This document shows, one piece after another, positions 183 to 13,351 of a stretch of 13,351 nt of DNA. Each line of letters begins with the position of its first letter. The first letter of the stretch is position 1. The position numbers and the translations under genes are program-made. A model generated the notes under the pieces. It worked only from the letters and a program-made list of their open reading frames with translations. It was not told the origin of the DNA and did no database searches. This DNA is from Clostridia bacterium (GTDB taxonomy: Bacteria; Bacillota; Clostridia; Christensenellales; Aristaeellaceae). The stretch covers positions 5,740-19,090 of the forward strand of contig JAUNDF010000039.1 in NCBI GenBank assembly GCA_030526225.1, written 5' to 3'.

Positions 183-791
183 TCAGCGGTCATACTGCGC
201 CATGCGCTTTTTCAGCACCTCGGGCCTTGCAAGGGAGTAACCGAAGAAGCCCAGCACATCCTGTGCCTGCTGATACACGCCGTGGTTGTAGCACACCAGC
301 CCCGCCTTTTCCAGATGCATGGAGCCGTCCTCCCGGAACAGCTCCTCCTGCACGCGGACGGCCACCACTTCGCCGATGAACATATCGTGGCTGCCCAGCT
401 CCGTCACACTCTTCACCCTGCAGGACAGGTACGCCGGACATTCCGCAATGGCGGGGGCATACTGCAGCTCTGCCGCGGGAACAGCCGTCAGCTTCATTTC
501 GGCAAACTTGTCGAAATCCCGGCCGGATTTTACACCGCACCAGTCCAGCTCCCGGCAGTGGGCCGCATCCACCAGATTGACCACAAACTCGCCGCTTTCC
601 TGAATCAAATGATGGGAATACCGCTCCTTGCGGATGGAGACCGACACCATGGGCGGCGTGGTATTGACGGTGCCTGCCCAGGCCACGGTGATAATGTTGG
701 GCTTTTCCTCGGTGATGCCCCGGCAGGAAATCATCACCGCCGGTACAGGGCAAAGCATGGTGCAGGGATCGATGGGACGGAATTGCTTCAT
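183..791 (-). CDS. Flavin reductase-like (FMN-binding split-barrel) domain protein
   Basis: Track ORF 183..803. The segment ...PNIITVAWAGTVNTTPPMVSVSIRKERYSHHLIQESGEFVVNL... resembles the flavin reductase domain family. The track start at 803 is a GTG that overlaps the SD-like GAAAGGG. The ATG at 791 (MKQFRPID...) lies ~9-11 nt downstream of that SD and is preferred. Stop is TGA (183-185). Confidence 0.8.
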   Translation of the reverse strand: MKQFRPIDPCTMLCPVPAVMISCRGITEEKPNIITVAWAGTVNTTPPMVSVSIRKERYSHHLIQESGEFVVNLVDAAHCRELDWCGVKSGRDFDKFAEMKLTAVPAAELQYAPAIAECPAYLSCRVKSVTELGSHDMFIGEVVAVRVQEELFREDGSMHLEKAGLVCYNHGVYQQAQDVLGFFGYSLARPEVLKKRMAQYDR

Positions 792-864
792 ATTAATAAG
801 CACCCTTTCTGCTGCAAGTCATACGCATTCAATCTGCGGCTGCCGAAACGGCAGCGGATAAAAT

Positions 865-893
865 ATACTAACACGCCCGGGGATAAAATGCAA
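865..893 (-). promoter_or_regulatory. Candidate sigma-A promoter for the flavin reductase gene
   Basis: On the minus strand: TTGCAT (893-888), a 17-nt spacer, then TAGTAT (870-865). Found by pattern match only. Confidence 0.3.
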
Positions 894-916
894 ATCCCCG
901 CCGTCAAGGAGGTTTC

Positions 917-1807
917 ATGGCCTACAACGCCAGACATGGCCACGGTGCCAAAATCCGCAGCAAGGGCAAAATGATTGCCATCATCATCGTTGTCGCCGCG
1001 CTGCTTGCAGTGCTGGCCATTCCCTTTATCGAGCCCTTCCTGCTGGAGGTGGACAGCCGCGCACTGGTGTCCTCCGACCTGCCCGGTGATGTGGGCACCC
1101 TGCGCATCGTGTATGTATCGGATATCCATCGGGGACCGTTCTACAGCCAGAGCCGGGTCCGGCAGCTGTGCAGCCGCATCAACGATCTGCGTCCCGACCT
1201 GCTGATTCTCGGCGGCGACTACGCGGAGGACTCCGACCATGCCATCGACTTTTTCCGCAATCTCCCCGACCTGCATGTCACCTATGCCGTCTGCGCCGTC
1301 ATGGGCGAAACGGACCGCACCCTGCCGGAGAGCAATCTGAGCGTGCTGAAGACCACCATGTACACCGCCGGGGTCACCCCCGTGGTCAACGAGGTGGTCC
1401 CCATCCGCATCGGCGGCGGCTCCACCATTTACGTGGCCGGTATCGACGATGTAACCGCCGGCTCCCCCGCCCTGCAGCAGGTGGCCGCTCAGGTCCGGCA
1501 GGATGATTATGTCATCTTTGCCAGCCATTCCCCGGCGGTGATTCAGGATTCTCTCCGCGCTTCCGGCAGCGACGGAAAGCGCGGCTGGTATGACCTGGGC
1601 CTGTTCGGCCACACCCACGGCGGGCAGATCTGGCCCCTTGGCAAGGCACTGGGCTTCGGGCAGAACATCCCCGACCGGTACATGTCCGGCTGGAAGCAGG
1701 AAAACAAGATTGACATGCTCATCTCCCGGGGCGTGGGCACCTCCGTTGTCCCCATGCGGCTGATGAGCAAGCCTCAAATCCACCTGATTACCGTCAAGTG
1801 CAAATGA
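917..1807 (+). CDS. Membrane-anchored metallophosphoesterase (calcineurin-like, YkuE/YaeI type)
   Basis: AGGAGG at 905-910 lies 6 nt before the ATG at 917. There is an N-terminal TM helix (IAIIIVVAALLAVLAIPFI). Phosphoesterase motifs are present: VYVSDIHRG, LILGGDY, ASHSP, GHTHGGQI. Stop is TGA. Confidence 0.85.
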   Translation: MAYNARHGHGAKIRSKGKMIAIIIVVAALLAVLAIPFIEPFLLEVDSRALVSSDLPGDVGTLRIVYVSDIHRGPFYSQSRVRQLCSRINDLRPDLLILGGDYAEDSDHAIDFFRNLPDLHVTYAVCAVMGETDRTLPESNLSVLKTTMYTAGVTPVVNEVVPIRIGGGSTIYVAGIDDVTAGSPALQQVAAQVRQDDYVIFASHSPAVIQDSLRASGSDGKRGWYDLGLFGHTHGGQIWPLGKALGFGQNIPDRYMSGWKQENKIDMLISRGVGTSVVPMRLMSKPQIHLITVKCK

Positions 1808-1846
1808 GGAAATATTACAAAAATAACGCTTTATGATTTTTGCATC

Positions 1847-1875
1847 TATACAAAAATGTAAAAGCAATGTATAAT
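1847..1875 (+). promoter_or_regulatory. Candidate sigma-A promoter for the solute-binding-protein/galK unit
   Basis: TATACA (1847-1852), a 17-nt spacer, then TATAAT (1870-1875) preceded by TG. It lies in the only AT-rich island between the two genes (1808-1900). Confidence 0.4.
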
Positions 1876-1912
1876 AAAAGCAACTATAGTAATCCGGAGG
1901 GAGTCCGCAACG

Positions 1913-3406
1913 GTGATCCGCAAGATATTCTGCAGCCTGCTGTGCGCGGTGCTGCTTGTTTCGGCCGCGGCTGCATATGCCCAGCCCTTTGTCATGGCCG
2001 GATTTGATGATGCTTCCGCCAATCACGACTGGGAGACCAACCTGTTTTTCCGCCGCATGGAGGAAAAAACCGGCGTCACCTTTATCTATCTGCAATACAG
2101 CGACAAGGCTGCATGGACACAGGCCAAGGCTTCCCTGTTTGCCGAAGGTGAGCAGCCCGATGTGCTGTTCAAGGCCGAGCTGACAAGCGAAGAGACCGAG
2201 CGCCTCTTCGGTCAGGGCTATCTGATTGACCTTGCCCCCTACGTCACCCCCGAGGTGATGCCCAACCTGTGCGCCCTGCTGGAGAAGAACCCTGCATGGC
2301 GTCAGGCCATCACCGGCCGCGGCGGCGAAATCATCACCCTGCCGTATATCAACGAGCTGCCCAACAACAACACCATGTGGATTAACCGCCGCTGGCTGGA
2401 TACGCTGAAGCTTTCCGTGCCCGCCACCGCGGAAGAGCTGACGGAGGTGCTCCGCGCCTTCCGGGACGGCGACCCCAACAAAAACGGCAGCAAGGATGAG
2501 GTCCCCCTCTCCTTTATGAGCATGTGGGATTTGAAGTACCTGTCCCACGCCTTCGGCATCATTGCCAACGATTACAACGTGTACGCCGACGAGGACGGCA
2601 CCGTCCGCTGTGCCTTTGACCAGCCGGCATACCGCGATTTTGTCAACTGGCTGCATCAGCTGTGGGAGGAAGGCCTGCTGTACCGCTCCGGCTTCTCCTC
2701 CATCGATCAGACCCGCATGGTCACCGACCAGAACGCCGTGATGACCATGGGCATGATGTTTGCCCCCACCCCTCTTTCTCTGATCCCCGCAACCGCCATG
2801 GATGATTACGATGCGCTGCCGCCCCTTGTCTGTGAGGGTAAGCAGGTGTACCGCGATTTCTGCGGCGAGGTTGTTCGAGGTGCCTTTGCCGTAACGAAAT
2901 CCTGCGCAGAGCCGGAAACCGTGCTGCGCTGGGTGGATACCCTTTACGGCGAGGAAGGCTCCGTATTGGCGCAGGCCGGTGTGGAGGGTGAGGAATTCAC
3001 CCGCGCAAGCGACGGCACCTGGTACTGGCTCAGCGATGATGAGACGGTCACCAATGTCATCCTCCCCGAACGCACCATCACCAGCGGTGCCTTTGTCCCC
3101 ATGTATGCACCGGCAGCATTTCAGCTGCAGCTTGACCGCGCAGAAACCACCAGAATCATGACCCAGCTGTATGAGCAGCGGCAGTATGTCCGTCTGCCCA
3201 TCCCCCTGAGCCACCTGACAAGCGCGGAGCAGGCCCGTTTGGATGAGCTTCAGAATGTTGTGGCTCCCTGGGCCGAGCAGCAGCTGGTCCACTTCGTCAC
3301 CGGCGAAGCGGTGCTGGATGATGCATCCTGGCAGGCATTTTTATCCCGGCTTCACACCCTTGGCATGGACGAGATTGTGTCCATCTGGCAGCAGAGCAAC
3401 CGATAA
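1913..3406 (+). CDS. Extracellular solute-binding protein, ABC transporter family 1 (LipO/YtcQ-like sugar-binding type)
   Basis: GTG start at 1913 with GGAGGGAG ~10 nt upstream. The Sec-type signal peptide is MIRKIFCSLLCAVLLVSAAAAYA/QP. Its ~500-aa size and N-terminal ...WETNLFFRRMEEKTGVTF... are typical of large sugar/oligosaccharide SBPs. Stop is TAA. Confidence 0.8.
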   Translation: MIRKIFCSLLCAVLLVSAAAAYAQPFVMAGFDDASANHDWETNLFFRRMEEKTGVTFIYLQYSDKAAWTQAKASLFAEGEQPDVLFKAELTSEETERLFGQGYLIDLAPYVTPEVMPNLCALLEKNPAWRQAITGRGGEIITLPYINELPNNNTMWINRRWLDTLKLSVPATAEELTEVLRAFRDGDPNKNGSKDEVPLSFMSMWDLKYLSHAFGIIANDYNVYADEDGTVRCAFDQPAYRDFVNWLHQLWEEGLLYRSGFSSIDQTRMVTDQNAVMTMGMMFAPTPLSLIPATAMDDYDALPPLVCEGKQVYRDFCGEVVRGAFAVTKSCAEPETVLRWVDTLYGEEGSVLAQAGVEGEEFTRASDGTWYWLSDDETVTNVILPERTITSGAFVPMYAPAAFQLQLDRAETTRIMTQLYEQRQYVRLPIPLSHLTSAEQARLDELQNVVAPWAEQQLVHFVTGEAVLDDASWQAFLSRLHTLGMDEIVSIWQQSNR

Positions 3407-3464
3407 CGCTGCCCCACACCAGTCATCACCTACATTAATGATAAAAAGAAGGGCGGAAACAGGA

Positions 3465-4745
3465 ATGAACAATTATGCAGATGTTGGCAAGGCTTTAACC
3501 TCTCCCCGTGTATTGGAAAAACTCTCCGAGCTTTACGGCACCCGCGACGGCATGACGGTCTATCAGTCCAATCGCTACAACGGACTGCTCAAGCGCCATG
3601 AAGAGCTGTTCAATTCCCCTGATCGCGTGCAGTTCATCAGCGCCCCCGGCCGCACCGAAATCGGCGGCAATCACACCGACCACAACCGCGGCCGCGTGCT
3701 GGCAGCCTCTGTCAATCTGGACTGCCTCTCTGCCGTTACCCCCCGCAATGACATGCTGGTCAATTTGGTCAGCGAGGGCTATGCCCCCATTCAGGTGGAT
3801 TTGAGCGATCTTGCGCTGGTGGAAGAGGAGAAGGGCACCACCCGCGCCCTCATCCGCGGCGTTGCCGCCCGCATGGTTGAGCTGGGCTACAAGATTGGCG
3901 GCTTTGATGTAGCCGTTACCTCTTCCGTTGCCTCCGGCAGCGGCCTGAGCTCCTCTGCCGCCTTTGAGGTGATGGTCTGCGCCATCTTCGACCAGCTGTA
4001 CAACGGCTTCGTCATCGATTTCAAGACCCGCGCCAAGATTGGCCAGTACGCCGAAAATGTGTACTTCGGCAAGCCCAGCGGTCTGCTGGACCAGATGGCC
4101 TCCGCAGCCGGCGGTCTGGTGGCTGTTGACTTTAAGGAGGATGACCCCGAGGTATTCCCCCTGAGCTTTGACTTTGCCGCTCACGGCTACTCCCTGGTGG
4201 TGGTTGCCACCGGCGGCAGCCATGCCGACCTCACCGACGACTATGCCGCCATCCCCAACGAGATGAAGGCCGTGGCCGGCAAGCTGGGTGCACCCTACCT
4301 GCGCAAGGTTCGCCGCGAGGAGTTCATCAAGGCCATCCCCGAGCTGCGCAATTCCGTCAGCGACCGTGCCATCATGCGCGCCATGCATTTCTATGATGAA
4401 AACCAGCGCGTTACCCGTCAGGTGGAAGCACTGCGCGACAACGAGCTGACCAAGTTCTTCGACAACATCATCGAGAGCGGCCGCAGCAGCTATATGTACC
4501 TGCAGAACGTTTACGCCAAGCCCGAGGATCAGAGCCTGTCCCTTGCCCTGTGCATGGCCGAATCCATGCTGAAGGACCGCGGCGCATGGCGCATCCACGG
4601 CGGCGGCTTTGCAGGCACCACCCTGAACTTTGTCCCCCAGGATCTGCTGGCCGAGTTCATCGCGTGGAACGAGCAGGTCTTCGGCAAGCACTGCTGCCAT
4701 GTGCTGGACATCCGTCCCCAGGGCGCCGCAGTCATCGAGCTGTAA
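3465..4745 (+). CDS. galK: Galactokinase (GHMP kinase family)
   Basis: The real start is the ATG at 3465 (MNNYADVGK...). The track ORF from 3243 is an upstream extension that overlaps the SBP gene. The galactokinase signature APGRTEIGGNHTDHNRGRVLAA is present. The GHMP ATP-binding motif is GGFDVAVTSSVASGSGLSSSAA, and the C-terminal GGGFAGT motif is also present. Stop is TAA. Confidence 0.85.
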   Translation: MNNYADVGKALTSPRVLEKLSELYGTRDGMTVYQSNRYNGLLKRHEELFNSPDRVQFISAPGRTEIGGNHTDHNRGRVLAASVNLDCLSAVTPRNDMLVNLVSEGYAPIQVDLSDLALVEEEKGTTRALIRGVAARMVELGYKIGGFDVAVTSSVASGSGLSSSAAFEVMVCAIFDQLYNGFVIDFKTRAKIGQYAENVYFGKPSGLLDQMASAAGGLVAVDFKEDDPEVFPLSFDFAAHGYSLVVVATGGSHADLTDDYAAIPNEMKAVAGKLGAPYLRKVRREEFIKAIPELRNSVSDRAIMRAMHFYDENQRVTRQVEALRDNELTKFFDNIIESGRSSYMYLQNVYAKPEDQSLSLALCMAESMLKDRGAWRIHGGGFAGTTLNFVPQDLLAEFIAWNEQVFGKHCCHVLDIRPQGAAVIEL

Positions 4746-4867: not shown

Positions 4868-4927
4868 TATTTTGATATAGTATGCACATTCCCAGGCGAA
4901 TCAATCAACGAAAGTGAGGCATAGCCC

Positions 4928-5815
4928 ATGAAAGGCATTATCCTCGCCGGCGGCGCCGGCACTCGCTTGTATCCGCTTACCATGGTGACCAGCAAGCAGC
5001 TGCTGCCCGTATATGACAAGCCCATGATCTACTATCCCCTGTCCACGCTGATGCTGGCGGGCATCCGGGATATCATGATTATTTCCACCCCCACCGATAC
5101 GCCCCGCTTCGAGGCACTGCTGGGTGACGGCAATCAGTTCGGCCTGAACCTGACCTACAAGGTGCAGCCCTCTCCCGACGGTCTTGCCCAGGCGTTCCTG
5201 CTGGGTGAGGAGTTTATCGGCGATGAAGCCTGTGCCATGGTGCTGGGTGACAACATTTTCTACGGCAACGGCTTCAGCAAGATTCTCCGCGCTGCCGCTG
5301 ACCGGGCCGAGAACGCACAGCATGCCACCATCTTCGGCTACTACGTCACCGACCCCGAGCGCTTCGGCATCGTGGAGTTTGACGAAAACGGCAAGGTGCT
5401 GTCCGTGGAGGAAAAGCCCGCCAAGCCCAAGAGCAACTACTGCATTACGGGTCTGTACTTCTACCCCAAGGGCGTGAGCAAGATGGCCCACGAGGTGAAG
5501 CCCTCCGCAAGAGGCGAGCTGGAAATCACCACCCTCAACGATATGTACCTCAAGCGGGACATCCTTGATGTGGAACTGCTGGGCCGCGGCTTTGCATGGC
5601 TGGATACCGGCACCATGGATAGTCTCGTGGAAGCAGCCGACTTTGTGCAGATGATTGAAAAGCGCCAGTCCATCAAGATTTCCGCCCCCGAAGAAATTGC
5701 CTACCGCAACGGCTGGATCAGCAAGGAAAAGCTGCTGGAATCCGCCGAACGCTACGGCAAGAGCCCCTACGGCGCTCACCTGAAGGCCGTGGCCGAGGGC
5801 AAAATCCGTTATTGA
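4928..5815 (+). CDS. rfbA: Glucose-1-phosphate thymidylyltransferase (RmlA)
   Basis: The N-terminus is [38 protein letters not shown]. ...DNIFYG... and ...GFAWLDTGT... are classic RmlA motifs. Length is 295 aa. Stop is TGA. Confidence 0.95.
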
Positions 5816-5844
5816 TTCGCATAAGATAAAAGGAGTCCAGTCCC

Positions 5845-6408
5845 ATGGAGAAAATCGCCACCGCACTGCCGGATGTATTCATCATTGAGCCCAAGGTATT
5901 CGGCGACCATCGCGGCTATTTTATGGAAACCTATTCCACCAAGACCTTCGCGGACATCGGCATTGACACCGTATTCGTGCAGGACAACCAGTCCTTCACC
6001 GCCCAGAAGGGCACATTGCGGGGCATCCATTTTCAGAATGCCCCCATGGCACAGGCCAAGCTGGTCCGCGTGACCAAGGGCGCCGTGCTGGATGTGGCCG
6101 TTGACCTGCGCAAGGGCAGCCCCACCTACCGTCAGTGGGTGGCCGTGGAGCTTTCTGCGGATAACAAGCGCATGCTCTACATCCCCCGCGGCTTCGGTCA
6201 CGGCTTCAAGACCCTGACGGATGATGTGGAGTTCTGCTACAAGGTGGACAACCTGTACAGCAAGGAATGCGACCGCGGCATCCGGTTCAATGACCCCGCC
6301 ATCGGCGTTGATTGGGGCGAAGTGATTGAGGCGCTGCTGAGCCAGAAGGATACAGCCGCGCCCCTGCTGGAGGATAGTGACTGCAATTTTGTATATGGTG
6401 AAATTTGA
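5845..6408 (+). CDS. rfbC: dTDP-4-dehydrorhamnose 3,5-epimerase (RmlC)
   Basis: AAAGGAG SD precedes the start. FIIEPKVFGDHRGYFMETY, RGIHFQ, KLVRVTKGAVLDVAVDLR and YIPRGFGHGF are RmlC cupin motifs. Stop is TGA. Confidence 0.95.
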   Translation: MEKIATALPDVFIIEPKVFGDHRGYFMETYSTKTFADIGIDTVFVQDNQSFTAQKGTLRGIHFQNAPMAQAKLVRVTKGAVLDVAVDLRKGSPTYRQWVAVELSADNKRMLYIPRGFGHGFKTLTDDVEFCYKVDNLYSKECDRGIRFNDPAIGVDWGEVIEALLSQKDTAAPLLEDSDCNFVYGEI

Positions 6409-6413
6409 GGAAA

Positions 6414-6526
6414 GCCCTCTCACCGCCTGCGGGCGGAGCTCCCCCGGAGGGGGAGCCAAGGGGATTTCCGCGCCAGCGCCTGGCTCTCCCTTTGGGAGAG
6501 CTGTCACCGAAGGTGACTGAGAGGGC
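6414..6526. repeat. Nested-palindrome structured element: two inverted ~44-nt modules around a 24-nt spacer, in the rfbC-rfbB spacer
   Basis: The left module (6414-6457) is GCCCTCTCA-CCGCCTGCGGGCGG-AGCTCCCCC-GGA-GGGGGAGCC. The reverse complement of the right module (6526-6482) is GCCCTCTCA-GTCACCTTCGGTGAC-AGCTCTCCC-AAA-GGGAGAGCC. Local hairpins are 6423-6436, 6438-6456, 6472-6484, 6483-6501 and 6503-6517. The closing stem pairs 6414-6422 with 6518-6526. Confidence 0.6.
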
Positions 6527-6582
6527 AGGCACAGCAATTTTCATGTATTCCTTTACCGAATCCATTGAAGGAGGACACACCC

Positions 6583-7611
6583 ATGAACATCGTCGTCACC
6601 GGCGGTGCCGGATTTATCGGTGCCAACTTTGTGTATTACGAGCTGAACAACCACCCCGAGGACCGCATCATCTGCATCGACAGCCTGACCTATGCCGGCA
6701 ACCTGTCCAGCCTTGAGGAAGCTCTCAAGAACCCCAACTTCCGCTTCATCAAGGCCGACATCACCGACAAAGCCGCTGTGGAAAAAATGTTTGAGGAAGA
6801 GCATCCCGACATCGTTATCAACTTTGCCGCAGAAAGCCATGTGGACCGCTCTGTGGAGGATCCGGGCCTGTTCCTGCGCACCAACATCCTCGGCACCCAG
6901 ACCCTGATGGATGCCTGCCGCAAGTACGGCATCAAGCGCTACCATCAGGTATCCACCGACGAGGTGTACGGCGATCTGCCTCTGGACCGCCCTGACCTGT
7001 TCTTCCATGAGGACACCCCCATCCACACCAGCAGCCCCTACTCTGCCTCCAAGGCATCTGCCGACCTGCTGGTGCTGGCCTATGCCCGCACCTTCAAGCT
7101 GCCGGTGTCCATCACCCGCTGCTCCAACAACTACGGTCCCTATCATTTCCCCGAAAAGCTGATTCCCCTGATGATTTCCCGTGCGCTGGCTGACGAAAGC
7201 CTGCCCGTATACGGCACCGGCGAGAACGTCCGCGACTGGCTGTATGTGGAAGATCACTGCGCCGCCATCGATCTGGTGGCCCGCAAGGGCCGCGAGGGCG
7301 AAGTGTACAACGTGGGCGGCCATAACGAGCGCACCAATCTGGAGGTTGTGAAGACCATCCTGCGCCAGCTGGGCAAGCCGGAATCCCTCATCACCTATGT
7401 GAAGGACCGCCCCGGCCATGACCAGCGCTACGCCATCGACCCCACCAAGATTCACACCGAGCTGGGCTGGCTGCCCAAGACCACCTTTGACGAGGGCATC
7501 AAGCGCACCATCCAGTGGTACCTGGACAACGAGAAATGGTGGAAGGACATCCTGGCCGGCGATTATCAGAACTACTACGAAAAGATGTATGGAAACAGAG
7601 GCAACGCATGA
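6583..7611 (+). CDS. rfbB: dTDP-glucose 4,6-dehydratase (RmlB)
   Basis: GAAGGAGG (6568-6575) lies 7 nt before the ATG at 6583. The track start at 6565 is a TTG inside the SD and is rejected. MNIVVTGGAGFIGANFV is the Rossmann GxxGxxG motif. The YSASK catalytic motif is present, and DRPGHDQRYAID is typical of RmlB. Stop is TGA. Confidence 0.95.
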   Translation: MNIVVTGGAGFIGANFVYYELNNHPEDRIICIDSLTYAGNLSSLEEALKNPNFRFIKADITDKAAVEKMFEEEHPDIVINFAAESHVDRSVEDPGLFLRTNILGTQTLMDACRKYGIKRYHQVSTDEVYGDLPLDRPDLFFHEDTPIHTSSPYSASKASADLLVLAYARTFKLPVSITRCSNNYGPYHFPEKLIPLMISRALADESLPVYGTGENVRDWLYVEDHCAAIDLVARKGREGEVYNVGGHNERTNLEVVKTILRQLGKPESLITYVKDRPGHDQRYAIDPTKIHTELGWLPKTTFDEGIKRTIQWYLDNEKWWKDILAGDYQNYYEKMYGNRGNA

Positions 7612-8465
7612 AGATTCTTGTAACCGGTGTAGCCGGACAGCTGGGCTACGATTGTGTCAAGCAGCTGGAGCATTTGGGCATCCCCTGCCGCGGTGTTGAC
7701 CGGGACGATTTCGACCTGACCGATGCGCAGGCCGTGATGAACTATGTGCAGGAGTACAAGCCCGATGCCATTATGCACTGCGCCGCCTATACCAATGTGG
7801 ACAAGGCCGAGACCGAGCCTCAGGTGGCTGCCGCCGTCAACGGCATGGGCACGCTGAACATGGTTCGTGCCGCCCAGAGCGTGGGTGCATCCCTGATGTA
7901 CATCTCCACCGACTACGTGTTCGACGGTGAGGGTGACCAGCCCTTTGAGGTTGATGCCCCCTACGGCCCCACCAACGTGTACGGCCTGACCAAGATGCAG
8001 GGTGAGGAGGCCGTGCGCAGCCTGATGACCAAGTATTTCATCATCCGCACCGCATGGGTCTTCGGCATGAACGGCCGCAATTTTGTCAAAACCATGCTGC
8101 GTCTGGGCGCCGAGCGCTCCAGCGTGAATGTGGTATGCGACCAGTTCGGCTCCCCCACCTACACCCCCGATTTGGCCCGGCTGATGTGCGAAATGATTAT
8201 GACCAACCGCTACGGCGTATATCATGCCACCAACGAGGGCTTCTGCTCCTGGGCTGATTTTGCCGCCGCCATCATGCAGCAGGGCAACCGCCGCTGCACC
8301 GTGCATCCCGTGACCAGCGAGGAGTATGCATCCGCCACCAAGCGCCCCGCCAATTCCCGCCTGAGCAAGGATGCGCTGGAGCGCGCCGGCTTCTCCCGGC
8401 TGCCCAGCTGGCAGAACGCCCTGTCCCGCTACATTGTGGAGCTGGACGAAAACGGAATGCTGTAA
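7608..8465 (+). CDS. rfbD: dTDP-4-dehydrorhamnose reductase (RmlD)
   Basis: The ATG at 7608 overlaps the rfbB stop (ATGA, 4-nt overlap, suggesting translational coupling). MKILVTGVAGQLGYD, ISTDYVFDG, YGLTKMQGE and the C-terminal RPANSRLS are RmlD motifs. The track start at 7515 lies inside rfbB and is rejected. Stop is TAA followed by TGA. Confidence 0.95.
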   Translation: MKILVTGVAGQLGYDCVKQLEHLGIPCRGVDRDDFDLTDAQAVMNYVQEYKPDAIMHCAAYTNVDKAETEPQVAAAVNGMGTLNMVRAAQSVGASLMYISTDYVFDGEGDQPFEVDAPYGPTNVYGLTKMQGEEAVRSLMTKYFIIRTAWVFGMNGRNFVKTMLRLGAERSSVNVVCDQFGSPTYTPDLARLMCEMIMTNRYGVYHATNEGFCSWADFAAAIMQQGNRRCTVHPVTSEEYASATKRPANSRLSKDALERAGFSRLPSWQNALSRYIVELDENGML

Positions 8466-8476
8466 TGAATTAAATC

Positions 8477-8516
8477 AGACAGCCGCATACCCTTCACGGC
8501 TGTCTTTTCCCTTTTT
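8477..8516 (+). terminator. Rho-independent terminator (or attenuating hairpin) after rfbD
   Basis: AGACAGCCG (8477-8485) pairs with CGGCTGTCT (8497-8505), a perfect 9-bp stem with an 11-nt loop, followed by TTTTCCCTTTTT. Confidence 0.65.
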
Positions 8517-8531
8517 ATCGGAGGAAGCTAC

Positions 8532-9431
8532 ATGAAAGCGCTGATACTCAATTCCGGCCTCGGCAGCCGCATGGGTGACCTGACCCGCCAGCACCCCAAG
8601 TGCATGACGGCCATTCACGGCGGCGAAACCATTCTGTCCCGCCAGCTGCGGCAGCTGAGCGATGCGGGCATCCGTCAGGTGGTGATGACCACCGGTGCCT
8701 TTGATCAGGTCCTGCGGGACTACTGTTCCTCTCTGGCACTGCCCCTGGACATCACCTTTGTGATGAATCCCCGCTACAGCGAGACCAACTATATCTACTC
8801 CATCTACTGTGCCCGGGAGCATCTGGCGGATGACATCCTGCTGATGCACGGCGATCTGGTGTTTGAAGATGCGGTGCTGGCCGATGTGATGGCCGCGCCC
8901 CACAGCTGCATGGCTGTATCCTCCACCCTGCCCCTGCCGGAAAAGGATTTCAAGGCCGTGGTGGAAGACGGACACATCACCCGGGTGGGCATCGAATTCT
9001 TCGACCATGCCATGGCCGCCCAGCCCCTGTACAAGCTGTGCAAAGAGGACTGGCTGCAGTGGCTGGATGCTATCGCCCGCTTTGTGGATGAAGGCACGGT
9101 GAAGGTCTATGCCGAAAACGCCTTCAATCAGGTATCCGATGCATGCCGCATCCTGCCCCTGGATGTTTTAGACAGCCTGTGCGGCGAGATTGATACCCCC
9201 GCCGATCTGGAGGCCATGAACGCCCGGCTGGACAGCAAAACCGTGTACATGTGCTTCTCCGCGGACATGATTCACTCCGGCCATGTGGCCATCATCCGCA
9301 AGGCTGCCCGTCTGGGACGGCTGGTGATCGGCGTGCTGTCCGACGAAGCGGTGGCCAGCTTCAAGCGCTTCCCCCTGATGCCCTATGAGGAGCGCCGCAG
9401 CCTATTTGCCAGCCTTGCCGGTGTCGATTAG
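8532..9431 (+). CDS. LicC/PntC-like nucleotidyltransferase domain plus the N-terminal half of a TagD-like cytidylyltransferase fold; ends at an in-frame TAG (upstream part of the 8532..10532 frame)
   Basis: GGAGGAAG SD lies 5 nt before the ATG at 8532. MKALILNSGLGSRMG...HPKCM is the NTP-transferase G-loop. ...NPRYSETNYIYSIY... and ...GEIDTPADLEAM resemble LicC. From aa ~237, TVYMCFSADMIHSGHVAIIRKAARLG carries the HxGH motif (9273-9284) of the cytidylyltransferase superfamily. TAG at 9429-9431 cuts this fold. Confidence 0.75.
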   Translation: MKALILNSGLGSRMGDLTRQHPKCMTAIHGGETILSRQLRQLSDAGIRQVVMTTGAFDQVLRDYCSSLALPLDITFVMNPRYSETNYIYSIYCAREHLADDILLMHGDLVFEDAVLADVMAAPHSCMAVSSTLPLPEKDFKAVVEDGHITRVGIEFFDHAMAAQPLYKLCKEDWLQWLDAIARFVDEGTVKVYAENAFNQVSDACRILPLDVLDSLCGEIDTPADLEAMNARLDSKTVYMCFSADMIHSGHVAIIRKAARLGRLVIGVLSDEAVASFKRFPLMPYEERRSLFASLAGVD

Positions 9432-10532
9432 GTGATTGAGCAGAAGCAGCTGGACTACACCGATGTCCTGCGTCAGCTGAAGCCCGATTATGTGGTCCAC
9501 GGCGATGACTGGCGCACAGGCTTTCAGGTGCCCGTCCGGGAGGCTGTGCTCCGCGAACTGGCCGTATACGGCGGCAAGCTGGTGGAATTCCCCTATTCCA
9601 AGGATGAAAAGTATGACGAGCTGGACCGCCGCACCCGCCTGCAGCTGGCCATGCCCGACCATCGCCGGGGCCGCCTGCGCCGTCTGCTGGCCATGAAGCA
9701 GCCTGTCACCTTCCTGGAGGCACACAGCGGCATCACCGGCCTGATTGCCGAAAAAACCACCATCTATCAGGATGGCAAGGCACATCAGTTTGACGGCATG
9801 TGGGTCAGCTCCCTGTGCGATTCCACCGCCAAGGGCAAGCCGGATATCGAGCTGGTGGATATGTCCAGCCGTCTGCGCACCATTGATGACATCATGGAGG
9901 TCACCACCAAGCCCATCATCCTTGACGGCGATACCGGCGGCCTGACCGAGCACTTTGTGTACACCGTGCGCACCCTGGAGCGCATGGGCGTATCCGCCGT
10001 CATCATTGAAGACAAAACGGGCCTGAAGAAGAACAGCCTCTTCGGCACCGAGGTGGAGCAGACGCAGGACAGCATCGAGAATTTCTCCGCCAAGATTGCC
10101 GCCGGCAAGCGCGCCCAGCGCACCCGCGACTTTATGATTATCGCCCGCATCGAGAGCCTGATTCTCGAGCGCGGCATGGAGGATGCCCTGACCCGCGCCT
10201 TCGCCTTTGTGGCCGCCGGTGCCGATGGCATCATGATTCACTCCCGCAAGAAGGATCCGGCAGAGATTTTCGAATTCGCCGAAAAATTCCGCGCCGTGGA
10301 CAAGACAACCCCCATCGTGGTGGTGCCCACCTCCTTTAACACCGTCACCGAGGAGGAATTCGCCGCCCGGGGCATCAACATCGTCATCTACGCCAATCAG
10401 CTGACCCGCAGCGGCTTCCCTGCCATGCAGAAGGCCGCCACCGCCATTCTGGAAAATCACCGGGCCAAGGAAGCGGATGACATGTGCATGTCCATCAAGG
10501 AAATCCTGACGCTGATTCCCGACGAAGTGTAA
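9432..10532 (+). CDS. aepX: C-terminal half of the TagD-like fold fused to phosphoenolpyruvate mutase (PepM/AepX); same frame as 8532..9431, true initiation unclear
   Basis: The frame continues directly after the TAG with GTG at 9432 and no SD. ...LKPDYVVHGDDWRTG completes the TagD-like fold. PepM motifs are present: LEAHSGITGLIAE, WVSSLCDS, ILDGDTGG, the PepM-specific EDKxxxxxNS motif (IEDKTGLKKNS, 10008-10037), ARIES and IMIHSRK. Stop is TAA. Confidence 0.8.
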   Translation: MIEQKQLDYTDVLRQLKPDYVVHGDDWRTGFQVPVREAVLRELAVYGGKLVEFPYSKDEKYDELDRRTRLQLAMPDHRRGRLRRLLAMKQPVTFLEAHSGITGLIAEKTTIYQDGKAHQFDGMWVSSLCDSTAKGKPDIELVDMSSRLRTIDDIMEVTTKPIILDGDTGGLTEHFVYTVRTLERMGVSAVIIEDKTGLKKNSLFGTEVEQTQDSIENFSAKIAAGKRAQRTRDFMIIARIESLILERGMEDALTRAFAFVAAGADGIMIHSRKKDPAEIFEFAEKFRAVDKTTPIVVVPTSFNTVTEEEFAARGINIVIYANQLTRSGFPAMQKAATAILENHRAKEADDMCMSIKEILTLIPDEV

Positions 10533-10547
10533 ACCATCCAATCCATA

Positions 10548-10588
10548 CAAAAACCGGCGTGTCATCTGCTCGACACGCCGGTTTCTTG
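10548..10588. terminator. Bidirectional rho-independent terminator between the convergent pepM and MATE genes
   Basis: ACCGGCGTGTC (10553-10563) pairs with GACACGCCGGT (10572-10582), a perfect 11-bp stem with an 8-nt loop. It is flanked by AAAAA on the left and TTTCTT on the right. Confidence 0.7.
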
Positions 10589-10589
10589 A

Positions 10590-11936
10590 TTATTCTCTTG
10601 CTTCCACATGAGCGAAGCGCCGCTCCACCTTTCGCATGGTGGAAATGATGCCGAAGGTCAGCACGGTGGTCATGGCAATCCAGCTGATGGGCTCCGTGAG
10701 GCATACGCCAAGGTAGCCAAGCCACGGCACCAGGAACATCACCGACAGCACCTTCACCGTCATTTCAAGCACACTGGTCACCAGCGGGATGATTTTCGCC
10801 CCCATGCCCTGCAATGTACACCGGAAGATAAACAGCGGACCCAATGCATAAAAGCACACCACGGCGATTTTGATATAGCGCTCGCCGTTGCGCAGGATAT
10901 CCGCATCATCCGAGGTGGCCACCCAGCCCACCAGCTGGCGGCCAAAGATGAAGGACACCAAAATCAGCACCGTGGTAATCACCGTGTCAATGGCCAGCGC
11001 ATGGCAAACGCCCTGCCGGATGCGGCGGATTTTGCCGGCGCCGTAGTTTTGGCTGACATAGGTGGTCATGGAAATGCCGATGGTGAAAATCATCACCATC
11101 AGGATATCCACAATCTTTCGGGCGGATACATGGGCAATCATCACCTGCGTACCAAGGCTGTTGATGCCGCTTTGCAGGATGATGGTGCCGATGTTGACGA
11201 TGCTCAGCATCAGCGCCATGCTCAGGCCGAAATTTGTCAGCTCCCGCACCTCGCGGCCCTGCAATGCGAAGTCATCCCTGCGGGGCAATACAGCGCCTTT
11301 GCACAGGATATACAGGCAGGACAGCGCCGCCATGGCCTGGGCAATCACCGTGGCAACCGCCGCGCCGCGGATGCCCATGTGCAGCGGGCCGCACATCAGC
11401 AAATCCAGCACCACATTGATGACGATGGCCGCAAACAGGCAGTACAGCGGCCGCTTGCTGTCCCCAAGGGCGCGCAGGGTGTTGGCGCACATGTTGTACA
11501 GCGCCACAAACACCTGACCGCCAATGATGATGGTAATGTACGCCATGGCATCATCCATGATGTGCGCCGGGGTTTTCAGCAGCTCCAGCACAGGCCGCGC
11601 CAGCACAAGGCCCAGCACCACCATCACCGCCGTCACAGCGCCTGTCAGCATCATGGTCCCTGCCACAGCGCGGCGCACACCGGCGGTGTTTTCCGCCCCG
11701 AAATGGCGGGCCGTGACAATGCCGAAGCCCTGGGTCAGGCCGTTGACAAAGCCGGTGAGCAGGTTCACCACCACCGCCGTTGCGCCAACCGCCGCCAGCG
11801 CATTGCCGCCCACGTACATGCTGACAATTTTGCTGTCCGTCATGTTGTAAATCTGCTGGGCCACGTTGCCAATCATCAGCGGAAGGGCAAACAGAAAGAT
11901 GACCTTCGCCGGGAAGCCCTTGGTTAAATCCTTCAT
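10590..11936 (-). CDS. MATE-family efflux transporter
   Basis: 448 aa with ~12 hydrophobic segments. The N-terminus ...FLFALPLMIGNVAQQIYNMTDSKIV... and the internal ...LRALGDSKRPLY... are typical MatE-repeat motifs. GAGGA SD lies ~8 nt upstream of the ATG at 11936. Stop is TAA. Confidence 0.9.
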   Translation of the reverse strand: MKDLTKGFPAKVIFLFALPLMIGNVAQQIYNMTDSKIVSMYVGGNALAAVGATAVVVNLLTGFVNGLTQGFGIVTARHFGAENTAGVRRAVAGTMMLTGAVTAVMVVLGLVLARPVLELLKTPAHIMDDAMAYITIIIGGQVFVALYNMCANTLRALGDSKRPLYCLFAAIVINVVLDLLMCGPLHMGIRGAAVATVIAQAMAALSCLYILCKGAVLPRRDDFALQGREVRELTNFGLSMALMLSIVNIGTIILQSGINSLGTQVMIAHVSARKIVDILMVMIFTIGISMTTYVSQNYGAGKIRRIRQGVCHALAIDTVITTVLILVSFIFGRQLVGWVATSDDADILRNGERYIKIAVVCFYALGPLFIFRCTLQGMGAKIIPLVTSVLEMTVKVLSVMFLVPWLGYLGVCLTEPISWIAMTTVLTFGIISTMRKVERRFAHVEARE

Positions 11937-12037: not shown

Positions 12038-13018
12038 TTATTTCACTTTCTCGTATGGCAGATTCTGCTTCTTTGCGTACTTCTGCGCGTAGCTGCCGGA
12101 TTTGACCAGCAGTGTGGGCGGATTGGCCTGTTCAAAGGCAAAATCGCCGATTTTCTTCACCGACTTGGGGATGGCAATCTCCGTCAGCCTGCATCCGTAG
12201 AAGCAGCCCTCCATGATGGACTTCAGCCCCTTGCCGAGGGTAACCGCCGTCAGGCCTGTGCAGTCGGAAAAGCTGTACTTTCCCAGCGTTTCCACGCTGT
12301 CCGGGAGGATGATTTCCTTCAGCCCCGTGCAATAGGCAAAGCTGTAGTCCCCGATATCCGTTACCGTTTGGGGGATGGTGATTTGATTCAGCTGTTTGCA
12401 CCCATAGAAGGCGTAATTGCCCACGGTCATCACGCCGTCTATGATGGTCACCGCGGTGCTCATGCGCGCCGGAAGACAGCTCACCAGCCGCTGCTCCCAG
12501 GTGTGCATCAGCATGCCGGATTTGAACAGCAGCACCGGATGATCGTCGGTCAGGTAAATGTCCTTCAATGCAGGGCAATCCATGAAGGGGTTATCCCCCA
12601 CCTCGATCAGGGAGTAGGGCAAATCCACGGACTGCAAGCCGATACAGCCGGCATAGCAGAGACTGCCCATGGTTTTTACGCCCTCAGGCAAAGCCACGGC
12701 AGTGAAGCCCGTACAGCCCGCAAAGCAGCCATCCTCCAGCACAGACACGCTGTCAGGCAGGGTGATGTCCGTTAGTGCAGCGCACCCGCGGAAGGCATCC
12801 GCACCAATGCTTTCGATGCCCGATGGTACCGTATACTGCGCGGTATCCGTCCCGGACAGGAAGCAAATGAGCCGGTGATTCTGCCTGTCCGTCAGCGCAC
12901 CGCCTGCAAAGGCAAAGCGGGGATGATTGCCCGAAACCACGATTTCCTTCATCGCAGGGCAATTGGAGAAAGGATTGCCCTTGATTTCCTTCAGTGTATC
13001 GGGCAGCACCACGCGCAC
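12038..13018 (-). CDS. BspA-type leucine-rich-repeat (LRR_5) protein, C-terminal part; the frame is actually open up to 13066 and continues the 13067..13351 ORF
   Basis: It contains repeated ~23-25-aa units: ITLPDSVSVLEDGCFAGC, VALPEGVKTMGSLCYAGC, ITIPQTVTDIGDYSFAYC, IILPDSVETLGKYSFSDC, IAIPKSVKKIGDFAFE. The track start at 13018 is a GTG inside a repeat (..PNLVRVVLPD..) with no SD. Stop is TAA (12038-12040). Confidence 0.7.
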   Translation of the reverse strand: MRVVLPDTLKEIKGNPFSNCPAMKEIVVSGNHPRFAFAGGALTDRQNHRLICFLSGTDTAQYTVPSGIESIGADAFRGCAALTDITLPDSVSVLEDGCFAGCTGFTAVALPEGVKTMGSLCYAGCIGLQSVDLPYSLIEVGDNPFMDCPALKDIYLTDDHPVLLFKSGMLMHTWEQRLVSCLPARMSTAVTIIDGVMTVGNYAFYGCKQLNQITIPQTVTDIGDYSFAYCTGLKEIILPDSVETLGKYSFSDCTGLTAVTLGKGLKSIMEGCFYGCRLTEIAIPKSVKKIGDFAFEQANPPTLLVKSGSYAQKYAKKQNLPYEKVK

Positions 13019-13066
13019 AAGGTTGGGACAGTCGATGAAAACGCCCTCGTCAAGGGTGACAACGCC

Positions 13067-13351
13067 CTATGGAATGGTCACAGAGCGCACGGATTCGTTG
13101 TATGCAAAGGCTTCTGTCCGGATGCCCGTCACCTGCCGTCCGTCCATTTTGGCAGGAATGACCACATCCTCCGTCTCTTCAAACTGGCTGTAGTAAGAGA
13201 TGACCGCCGTCTTCCCTTTTTGGGGGATGTAATAGTACGCTCCGCACTCCTTGTCGTTCAGATCCTCGTTCAGGGCCGCCATGGCCTGCATCGGCAGACA
13301 CAGGGACACGGACAGCAAAATCGAAAGCACCAGAGCAATCCATTTCCTCAT
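13067..13351 (-). CDS. Signal peptide plus first LRR unit of the same BspA-type protein; ends at an in-frame TAG (13067-13069)
   Basis: The ATG sits at the window edge (13351-13349). MRKWIALVLSILLSVSLCLPMQAMA/A is a Sec signal peptide. VVIPAKMDGRQVTGIRTEAFAYNESVRSVTIP is the first LRR unit. The gene is in the same frame as 12038..13018 (13351-13018 = 333). Confidence 0.7.
   Translation of the reverse strand: MRKWIALVLSILLSVSLCLPMQAMAALNEDLNDKECGAYYYIPQKGKTAVISYYSQFEETEDVVIPAKMDGRQVTGIRTEAFAYNESVRSVTIP

Follow-up and report, generated by a model that had tools for sequence, protein, structure and literature searches.

A predicted trifunctional phosphoenolpyruvate mutase with an in-frame amber codon behind the rhamnose operon of a Clostridia bacterium

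How a gene for phosphoenolpyruvate (PEP) mutase can serve phosphonate synthesis with no decarboxylase gene beside it and with a stop codon inside its frame is the question raised by a stretch of DNA from a Clostridia bacterium of the family Aristaeellaceae (GenBank assembly GCA_030526225.1, contig JAUNDF010000039.1), here taken over its full length of 13,351 nucleotides and referred to as the window. The mutase gene, pepM, was described in a first-pass annotation of this DNA as carrying two fused nucleotidyltransferase (NTase) folds and as standing directly behind the rhamnose genes rfbACBD, a description confirmed by matches to TIGR02320, PF12804, PF01467 and the rfb equivalogs. The same annotation saw no ppd (the gene for phosphonopyruvate decarboxylase, Ppd), transaminase or transferase near pepM, and profile searches indeed found no ppd, aminotransferase or LicD genes within the window. 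Three ways out had been proposed, namely that the rest of the pathway lies elsewhere, that pepM is a remnant, and that the fused NTase domains supply the pull on the mutase reaction by themselves.

The explanation that accounts best for the evidence, to which we assign a probability of roughly 0.6, is that pepM encodes a trifunctional enzyme of a split pathway, that the pathway places a phosphonate on a surface glycan, and that the TAG at codon 300 is read through. The isolation of pepM from ppd is ordinary for this bacterial family; the unusual feature of the locus is the amber codon.

Domain composition of PepM and its place among known fusions

The pepM frame extends on the forward strand from ATG 8532 to the TAA at 10530-10532 and comprises 666 codons, with a single in-frame TAG at 9429-9431. 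The span first given to it, 8532-10588, holds for the coding part as far as 10532, and its last stretch takes in a terminator rather than coding sequence. As judged by homology, its product is a single enzyme of 666 residues that belongs to a known class and has three predicted activities (domain borders and motifs are listed in Table 1).

The identity of the C-terminal domain is the clearest of the three. On the 366 residues 3' of the TAG, the PEP mutase equivalog TIGR02320 scores 411.4 bits against a cut-off of 319.55, and the next-best family, phosphonopyruvate hydrolase, reaches 152 bits, below its own cut-off of 374. The motif EDKxxxxxNS, which separates PEP mutase (Ppm) from other members of the isocitrate-lyase superfamily (PMC6697681), is present as E493-D-K-T-G-L-K-K-N-S502 and is invariant across the homologue alignment. 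PEP mutases of known structure match the same region (5unc, E 2e-40; 1m1b, E 4.7e-37). By family score and motif, domain 3 is thus classified as a true PEP mutase, with predicted activity in converting PEP into phosphonopyruvate.

The middle domain resembles the cytidylyltransferase (CyTase) domain of Fom1, the fosfomycin enzyme of Streptomyces wedmorensis, where, likewise, a PEP mutase is directly preceded by a PF01467 CyTase. The Fom1 domain (5x3d) matches residues 235-357 with an E-value of 1.4e-37; PF01467 begins at residue 244 and gives 29.1 bits on the part 5' of the TAG, and TIGR00125 matches as well. As the account in PMC6697681 cites it, the CyTase domain of Fom1 makes CMP-HEP from cytidine triphosphate (CTP) and 2-hydroxyethylphosphonate (HEP) (Cho 2017), and this substrate arises two steps after Ppd (PMC6697681). 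Domain 2 would probably carry out the same reaction, given this homology and the co-occurrence of an iron-containing alcohol dehydrogenase (Fe-ADH) in relatives. In contrast to Fom1, the window gene has an extra N-terminal LicC/PntC-like domain, and both it and its relatives stand in a cell-wall glycan context (rfb, LicD, ABC-2 exporter and family 2 glycosyltransferase (GT2) genes) rather than in a cluster for antibiotic synthesis, and neither FomD- nor Fom3/4-type genes were seen. Fom1 clusters with Fom2 and FomC, which we take to parallel the clustering of pepM with the Ppd and Fe-ADH genes in relatives.

For the N-terminal domain, PF12804 (50.7 bits, cut-off 27) and PF00483 (30.6 bits) match residues 3-122, and residues 1-119 match LicC (1jyk, E 9e-9) and the PntC of Treponema denticola, Tde-PntC (6pd1, E 7.9e-7). 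PntC (Ari1348, Tde1415) and the LicC of Streptococcus pneumoniae likewise consist of a PF12804 fold with a GxGxR motif, and PntC is defined by its genomic context, the association with ppm (PMC6697681). The similarity to domain 1 is weak and covers about 120 residues only, and the substrate may be 2-aminoethylphosphonate (AEP), HEP or another compound.

Fusions of this type have been counted before: of Ppm enzymes, 33% are fused to PF12804, 23.6% to PF01467 and 2.9% to both (Rice 2019; PMC6697681; Nat Commun 10:3698). The window gene has the domain content of the double-fused class and is assigned to this already catalogued class, from which it differs in bearing an in-frame TAG. Among 5.8 billion proteins searched, thousands of homologues of about 669 residues have the same three Pfam domains; the best of them is 78% identical, and they are labelled 'phosphoenolpyruvate mutase' where they are labelled at all. 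No report of a biochemical characterisation was found for any double-NTase Ppm fusion. For closer comparison, 300 genomes of the same bacterial family were examined (genomes are labelled here with G-numbers and genera with g-numbers). pepM is present in 80 of them, in 39 of which the tri-domain gene is one uninterrupted frame, and in most of the others a gene for a 233-residue PntC-like protein is followed by one for a CyTase-PepM protein of about 435 residues.

The amber codon in pepM and across the genome

The TAG in pepM is one of many. When stop codons were counted over coding-like segments ending in a stop throughout the genome, at least 80 coding-like in-frame codons followed directly in 118 of 196 cases for TAG, as against 88 of 988 for TAA (8.9%) and 26 of 634 for TGA (4.1%). 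The median number of codons to the next in-frame stop is 123 after TAG, 22 after TAA and 12 after TGA, and among shorter downstream pieces, 76% are still coding-like after TAG versus 2-4% after TAA or TGA. Shine-Dalgarno motifs and ATGs accompany the TAA and TGA cases with downstream coding sequence, which are therefore regarded as gene junctions, whereas the TAG cases lack them. A minority of the TAGs could not be classified, and none of the 11 window genes checked ends in TAG. Thus, TAG lies inside well over 100 intact coding regions, almost never ends one and is evidently read through. The nucleotide 5' of these TAGs is mostly A, and that on the 3' side is mostly C or G.

These counts rest on a codon model seeded from Pfam-confirmed genes and iteratively retrained, which separates sense (+0.3 to +0.6) from antisense (-0.3 to -0.6) frames. 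The first two codon models were dropped: their training had been contaminated by long antisense frames, the antisense strand of the Fe-ADH gene being kept and pepM being lost. Antisense frames in this G+C-rich genome stay open as long as real genes or longer (in the window, 9402-10565, 4901-5866 and 788-3292, all on the reverse strand), and naive longest-ORF (open reading frame) calling consequently picks the wrong strand.

Essential genes are among those affected. DnaE has a TAG within its Pfam finger domain, LigA within its adenylation domain and MetH within its methyltransferase domain; others lie inside the read-through frames of RecD2 and AddB (examples of in-frame TAGs are C118:30520, C49:6694, C29:14300, C109:11324 and C126:24343). 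In relatives with 60-76% identity, the frame is not interrupted at the aligned sites, and the residue that they carry there is glutamate in five of five RecD2 proteins, in the two nearest LigA proteins and in the nearest MetH. Tryptophan or leucine appears opposite the LigA TAG in alignments with PDB entries, which were discounted in view of the glutamate in closer relatives (75% identity). Glutamate is thus the best candidate for the amino acid inserted. Decoding as pyrrolysine was considered and set aside, since a search at normal thresholds gave no tRNA-Pyl and it is glutamate, not a lysine-like residue, that aligns with the TAGs; the pyl genes were not searched.

In pepM itself, the TAG falls in a variable polar column of the alignment (H/S/A/R/N/E/K), and the sequence on both sides of it is conserved. 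Of the residues that are invariant in nine full-length homologues, pepM retains 133 of 139 on the 5' side of the TAG and 234 of 241 on the 3' side (96-97%), with no frameshift and no further internal stop. The TAG of pepM is most likely translated. We lean toward the fuller account in which it is decoded, probably as glutamate, by a chromosome-wide amber reassignment or by obligatory suppression, so that the full-length trifunctional enzyme would result. Given the in-frame TAGs across the genome, the one in pepM says nothing on whether this gene is decaying.

Several observations weigh against this account. At the pepM TAG, glutamate occupies the alignment column in only two of 11 homologues, and at the DnaE TAG site relatives have alanine or serine. 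No tRNA with anticodon CUA was detected by ARAGORN at its default or at a 90% threshold (the assembly, in 136 scaffolds, is 79.8% complete), and lowering the threshold to 80% gave noise. Release factors RF1 and RF2 were both not found in the incomplete assembly, and the two negatives are uninformative. Moreover, no second sample of this lineage with the pepM TAG came to light: the protein cluster is a singleton, and in a search with the C-terminal half no protein exceeded 84% identity.

The lack of a suppressor tRNA and of an independent sample would also suit a different explanation, in which the assembly consensus is wrong at the TAGs (through miscalling of GAG, for example), the code is standard and pepM is uninterrupted. 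The fragmented, metagenome-type assembly gives some room for this, and the A that mostly precedes TAG could hint at a context-dependent miscall. However, the excess is limited to TAG, in-frame TAA and TGA acting as normal gene ends, and general G-to-T or C-to-T miscalls would produce TAA and TGA too; an error restricted to one codon seems unlikely. Scaffold gaps in the form of runs of 10 N occur at C22:5730-5739, directly before the window start, and at 34 other places. They suggest short reads, in which systematic miscalls bound to a motif would be unusual. In addition, the 299-residue product ending at the TAG also occurs in a Logan assembly of a sequencing run, although perhaps from the same reads. 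On balance, we regard miscalling as improbable.

It may also be asked whether the TAG simply divides the enzyme in two. Translation would then end at the TAG and restart at the GTG directly 3' of it (GTG 9432), giving a 299-residue protein with the PntC-like domain and half of the CyTase, and a 366-residue protein with the other half of the CyTase and the PEP mutase. The position of the GTG fits this, and relatives do split PntC from CyTase-PepM as two genes. Nevertheless, their split lies at the PntC/CyTase boundary (about residue 233), not within the CyTase fold; no Shine-Dalgarno motif precedes GTG 9432; and essential enzymes of a single domain, for which splitting is implausible, show the same pattern of TAGs. 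This option is very unlikely.

Stop codons with a changed meaning are well known, including UGA in Mycoplasmatales, Absconditabacteria and Gracilibacteria, TAG in recoded gut phages, and UAR as glutamate in some ciliates. As in these systems, the codon stands in frame within conserved genes genome-wide and rarely or never ends a gene. The present case differs in that it concerns TAG, on a bacterial chromosome and apparently at glutamate positions. Under the standard code, pepM and well over 100 other genes here would be pseudogenes. If TAG is decoded, this would be a bacterial amber reassignment, with pepM and the Fe-ADH gene among more than 100 genes that can be made only through it.

Pathway partners and the proposed route to a wall glycan

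That a decarboxylase takes part in this family is suggested by its distribution: Ppd scores above the cut-off in 78 of the 80 family genomes with pepM. Its gene adjoins pepM in some relatives, is 1.7 Mb from it in closed genome G315 and 1.5 Mb from it in closed genome G168, and is on a different contig in at least 15 further draft genomes. In genus g37, ppd belongs to a small operon, together with genes for a beta-lactamase-fold protein and a DedA/VTT protein, beside rpsL-rpsG-fusA. The partner set differs in closed G315 (C1:1078559-1084403), where the remote ppd is placed between a class I/II aminotransferase gene, a PGA_cap capsule-synthesis gene and a phosphoglucomutase gene.

The position behind rhamnose genes also recurs. 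In G201 (genus g37), rfbA-rfbC-rfbB-rfbD-pepM are on one strand and in the order seen in the window, followed by an Fe-ADH gene. In G234 (g37) and G256 (g16), rfbACBD is convergent with pepM, the Fe-ADH gene adjoining pepM in G256 and being on a separate contig in G234. The comparison of pepM neighbourhoods that the first-pass annotation had called for, now carried out in the family genomes, thus finds ppd commonly distant, and pepM behind a rhamnose operon with ppd elsewhere is a recurring layout. The hint of a rhamnose-containing glycan given with that annotation fared less clearly: of the 39 relatives with a tri-domain pepM, three, belonging to two genera, have rfbA within about 5 kb of it, and the link is plausible, with modest support.

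More compact clusters help to read the chemistry. In G048, the order is LicD-Ppd-PntC-CyTase/PepM-ABC-2 permease-ABC ATPase-FeADH, and G033 encodes a fusion of the PntC-like domain with the Fe-ADH; both suggest that HEP is the phosphonate activated and that it ends up on a wall glycopolymer. The pairing with Fe-ADH in relatives, including the G033 fusion, points to HEP, not AEP, as the substrate. Clusters of the PhpC branch, which leads to HEP, are known to direct phosphonoglycan synthesis, including that of the HEP-modified exopolysaccharide of Stackebrandtia nassauensis (Li and Horsman 2022, PMC8942020). Like these, the relatives combine Ppm, Ppd and Fe-ADH with genes for glycan synthesis and export, whereas the genome studied here has its genes spread across three or more loci and yielded no Ppd.

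The partner search across the whole genome, which had also been proposed at the outset, was only partly successful. LicD genes are located on C83 and C121. An Fe-ADH gene on C118 has as its best matches the pepM-adjacent Fe-ADH genes of G256, G201, G162 and G322; in the fifth relative searched, G234, the best match is a copy on C41, away from pepM on C35. By orthology, a PhpC-type Fe-ADH, the branch-point enzyme acting on phosphonoacetaldehyde, is predicted to be encoded in this genome. The gene carries one in-frame TAG, shares an operon with GtrA and DUF1810 genes and has a GT2 gene next to it, a pairing also found in G234. The retention of this predicted phosphonoacetaldehyde reductase implies that phosphonoacetaldehyde is still made and suggests that ppd belongs to the fifth of the genome missing from the assembly.

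The LicD/ABC-2 cluster on C121 was examined as a source of the phosphonate transferase. Its transporter genes are 42-57% identical to those in the phosphonate cluster of G048. The candidate was rejected, as the cluster has its own IspD-like cytidylyltransferase and short-chain dehydrogenase/reductase (SDR) and is probably a wall-polymer system of the ribitol-phosphate type.

Taken together, the best reading is a split HEP-type pathway that decorates a cell-wall glycan, not new chemistry. In such a pathway, the mutase domain of PepM would turn PEP into phosphonopyruvate, and a Ppd encoded elsewhere, as expected from its presence, often at a distant locus, in the relatives, would pull the reaction on to phosphonoacetaldehyde. 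The Fe-ADH on C118, by its orthology with pepM-adjacent Fe-ADHs, would reduce this aldehyde to HEP, the NTase domains, by analogy with Fom1 and PntC, would make a CMP-phosphonate, and a transferase would finally place the phosphonate on a wall glycan, possibly one containing rhamnose.

Not everything found in this genome agrees with such a route. Ppd (TIGR03297) was not found in the 79.8%-complete assembly, in which only two generic thiamine-diphosphate (ThDP) enzymes match, at 19-22 bits, and neither was PhnW or another AEP transaminase. The rpsL-adjacent site is assembled and holds other genes, with no ppd; the region is rearranged, which makes the evidence from synteny weak there. Furthermore, the Fe-ADH gene does not stand beside pepM, unlike in G201 and G256.

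Could the fused enzyme then do without a decarboxylase? It was suggested in the first-pass annotation that nucleotidyl activation might itself provide the pull, the NTase domains cytidylylating phosphonopyruvate or a direct derivative of it. That neither the window nor the assembly yields a pull enzyme is in keeping with this, as is the lack of a Ppd match in two relatives of high completeness, G065 (97%) and G194 (94%). Yet the fusion class is a known one, Ppd is kept in nearly all pepM-bearing relatives, the PnAA (phosphonoacetaldehyde) reductase orthologue is retained here, and those members of the two NTase families that have been characterised use HEP or AEP as substrate, at a stage after Ppd (PMC6697681). 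The idea thus finds no backing and is most improbable. In this family, whose pathway genes are routinely scattered, the lack of a decarboxylase gene beside that for PEP mutase does not amount to evidence for new chemistry; the first proposal, that the rest of the pathway lies elsewhere, is favoured by the frequently remote Ppd of the relatives and by the Fe-ADH orthologue on C118.

The missing genes could instead mean that the pathway is being lost. In that case ppd would no longer be in the genome, and the TAG would be a genuine nonsense mutation, leaving a protein cut short at residue 299. The failure to find Ppd and PhnW, the lack of ppd at the rpsL-adjacent site, the absence from the window locus of the Fe-ADH gene that follows pepM in G201, and the TAG in the candidate Fe-ADH gene on C118 all suit a decaying remnant. 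However, dnaE, ligA, metH and recD2 are likewise interrupted by TAG, as are more than 100 further coding regions, and it is impossible for all of these to be dead; pepM is intact apart from it and conserved on both sides; and about 20% of the genome is unassembled, and even RF2 is missing from the assembly. The view that the internal TAG marks a remnant is accordingly unsupported, and decay is an improbable explanation, marginally more so than miscalling. Under the preferred reading, gut Clostridia would put HEP on wall glycans, as is suggested by the recurrent placement of pepM beside rfbACBD, LicD, GT2 and ABC-2 exporter genes.

Surroundings of pepM in the window

The rfb genes upstream all score above their equivalog cut-offs (Table 1) and are assigned as rfbACBD (4928..8465), for dTDP-L-rhamnose synthesis. 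The true start of rfbD is probably near 7605, since the Pfam match begins at residue 32 of the ORF. Between rfbD and pepM, a hairpin with a predicted folding energy of -17.7 kcal/mol (z -2.9), the same stem being flagged in a terminator scan, is a candidate terminator or attenuator; with its U-tract, it means that co-transcription of pepM with the rfb genes is not assured. A Shine-Dalgarno sequence, GGAGGAA (8519-8525), lies 5' of ATG 8532.

Downstream, the strong bidirectional terminator and the convergent MATE gene reported earlier are borne out by the folding energies (forward strand, -24.9 kcal/mol, z -7.6; reverse strand, -26.2 kcal/mol, z -5.1) and by PF01554 and TIGR00797, respectively. 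As far as the evidence shows, the MATE gene is not part of the phosphonate pathway.

Table 1. Positions of pepM domains, neighbouring features in the window and candidate partner loci on other contigs
Feature	Position	Strand	Details
rfbA	4928-5815	+	TIGR01207, 466.7 bits, above equivalog cut-off
rfbC	5845-6408	+	TIGR01221, 228.4 bits, above equivalog cut-off
rfbB	6565-7611	+	TIGR01181, 493.3 bits, above equivalog cut-off
rfbD	ORF 7515-8465	+	TIGR01214, 321.9 bits, above equivalog cut-off
Hairpin between rfbD and pepM	8477..8516	+	9-bp stem, 11-nt loop, then U-tract; UUUUCCCUUUUU
pepM domain 1, LicC/PntC-like nucleotidyltransferase	8532..9236	+	aa 1-235; GxGxR motif G9-L-G-S-R13 (8556-8570)
pepM domain 2, Fom1-type cytidylyltransferase	9237..9602	+	aa 236-357; HxGH motif H248-S-G-H251 (9273-9284); TAG inside domain
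pepM domain 3, PEP mutase	9675..10532	+	aa 382-666; EDKxxxxxNS motif E493-S502 (10008-10037); stop TAA 10530-10532
Bidirectional intrinsic terminator	10551..10584	both	13-bp stem, 8 G-C pairs, U-tracts on both strands; shared with MATE gene
MATE family efflux transporter, convergent	10590-11936	-	PF01554, 151.9 bits; TIGR00797, 164.6 bits
BspA-type leucine-rich-repeat surface protein	12038..13351	-	476 codons on contig; 5' end outside window
IspD-like cytidylyltransferase - SDR - LicD - ABC-2 permease - ABC ATPase	C121:88-4588	-	Cluster reaches contig edge
GtrA - DUF1810 - GT2 - Fe-ADH - DUF218 - RadC - DUF218	C118:23867-28820	-	Five genes with one or two in-frame TAGs
Fe-ADH	C118:25877-27010	-	Best matches are pepM-adjacent Fe-ADHs in G256, G201, G162 and G322

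Further downstream, the gene for a leucine-rich-repeat protein has an in-frame TAG of its own (13067-13069, reverse strand), and its read-through product scores 228 bits on PF13306. At the other end of the window, a galactokinase-like GHMP kinase frame (3243-4745, forward strand) has about 110 extra N-terminal residues and overlaps the 3' end of the solute-binding-protein ORF before it (1913-3406); its true start is probably further 3' than 3243.

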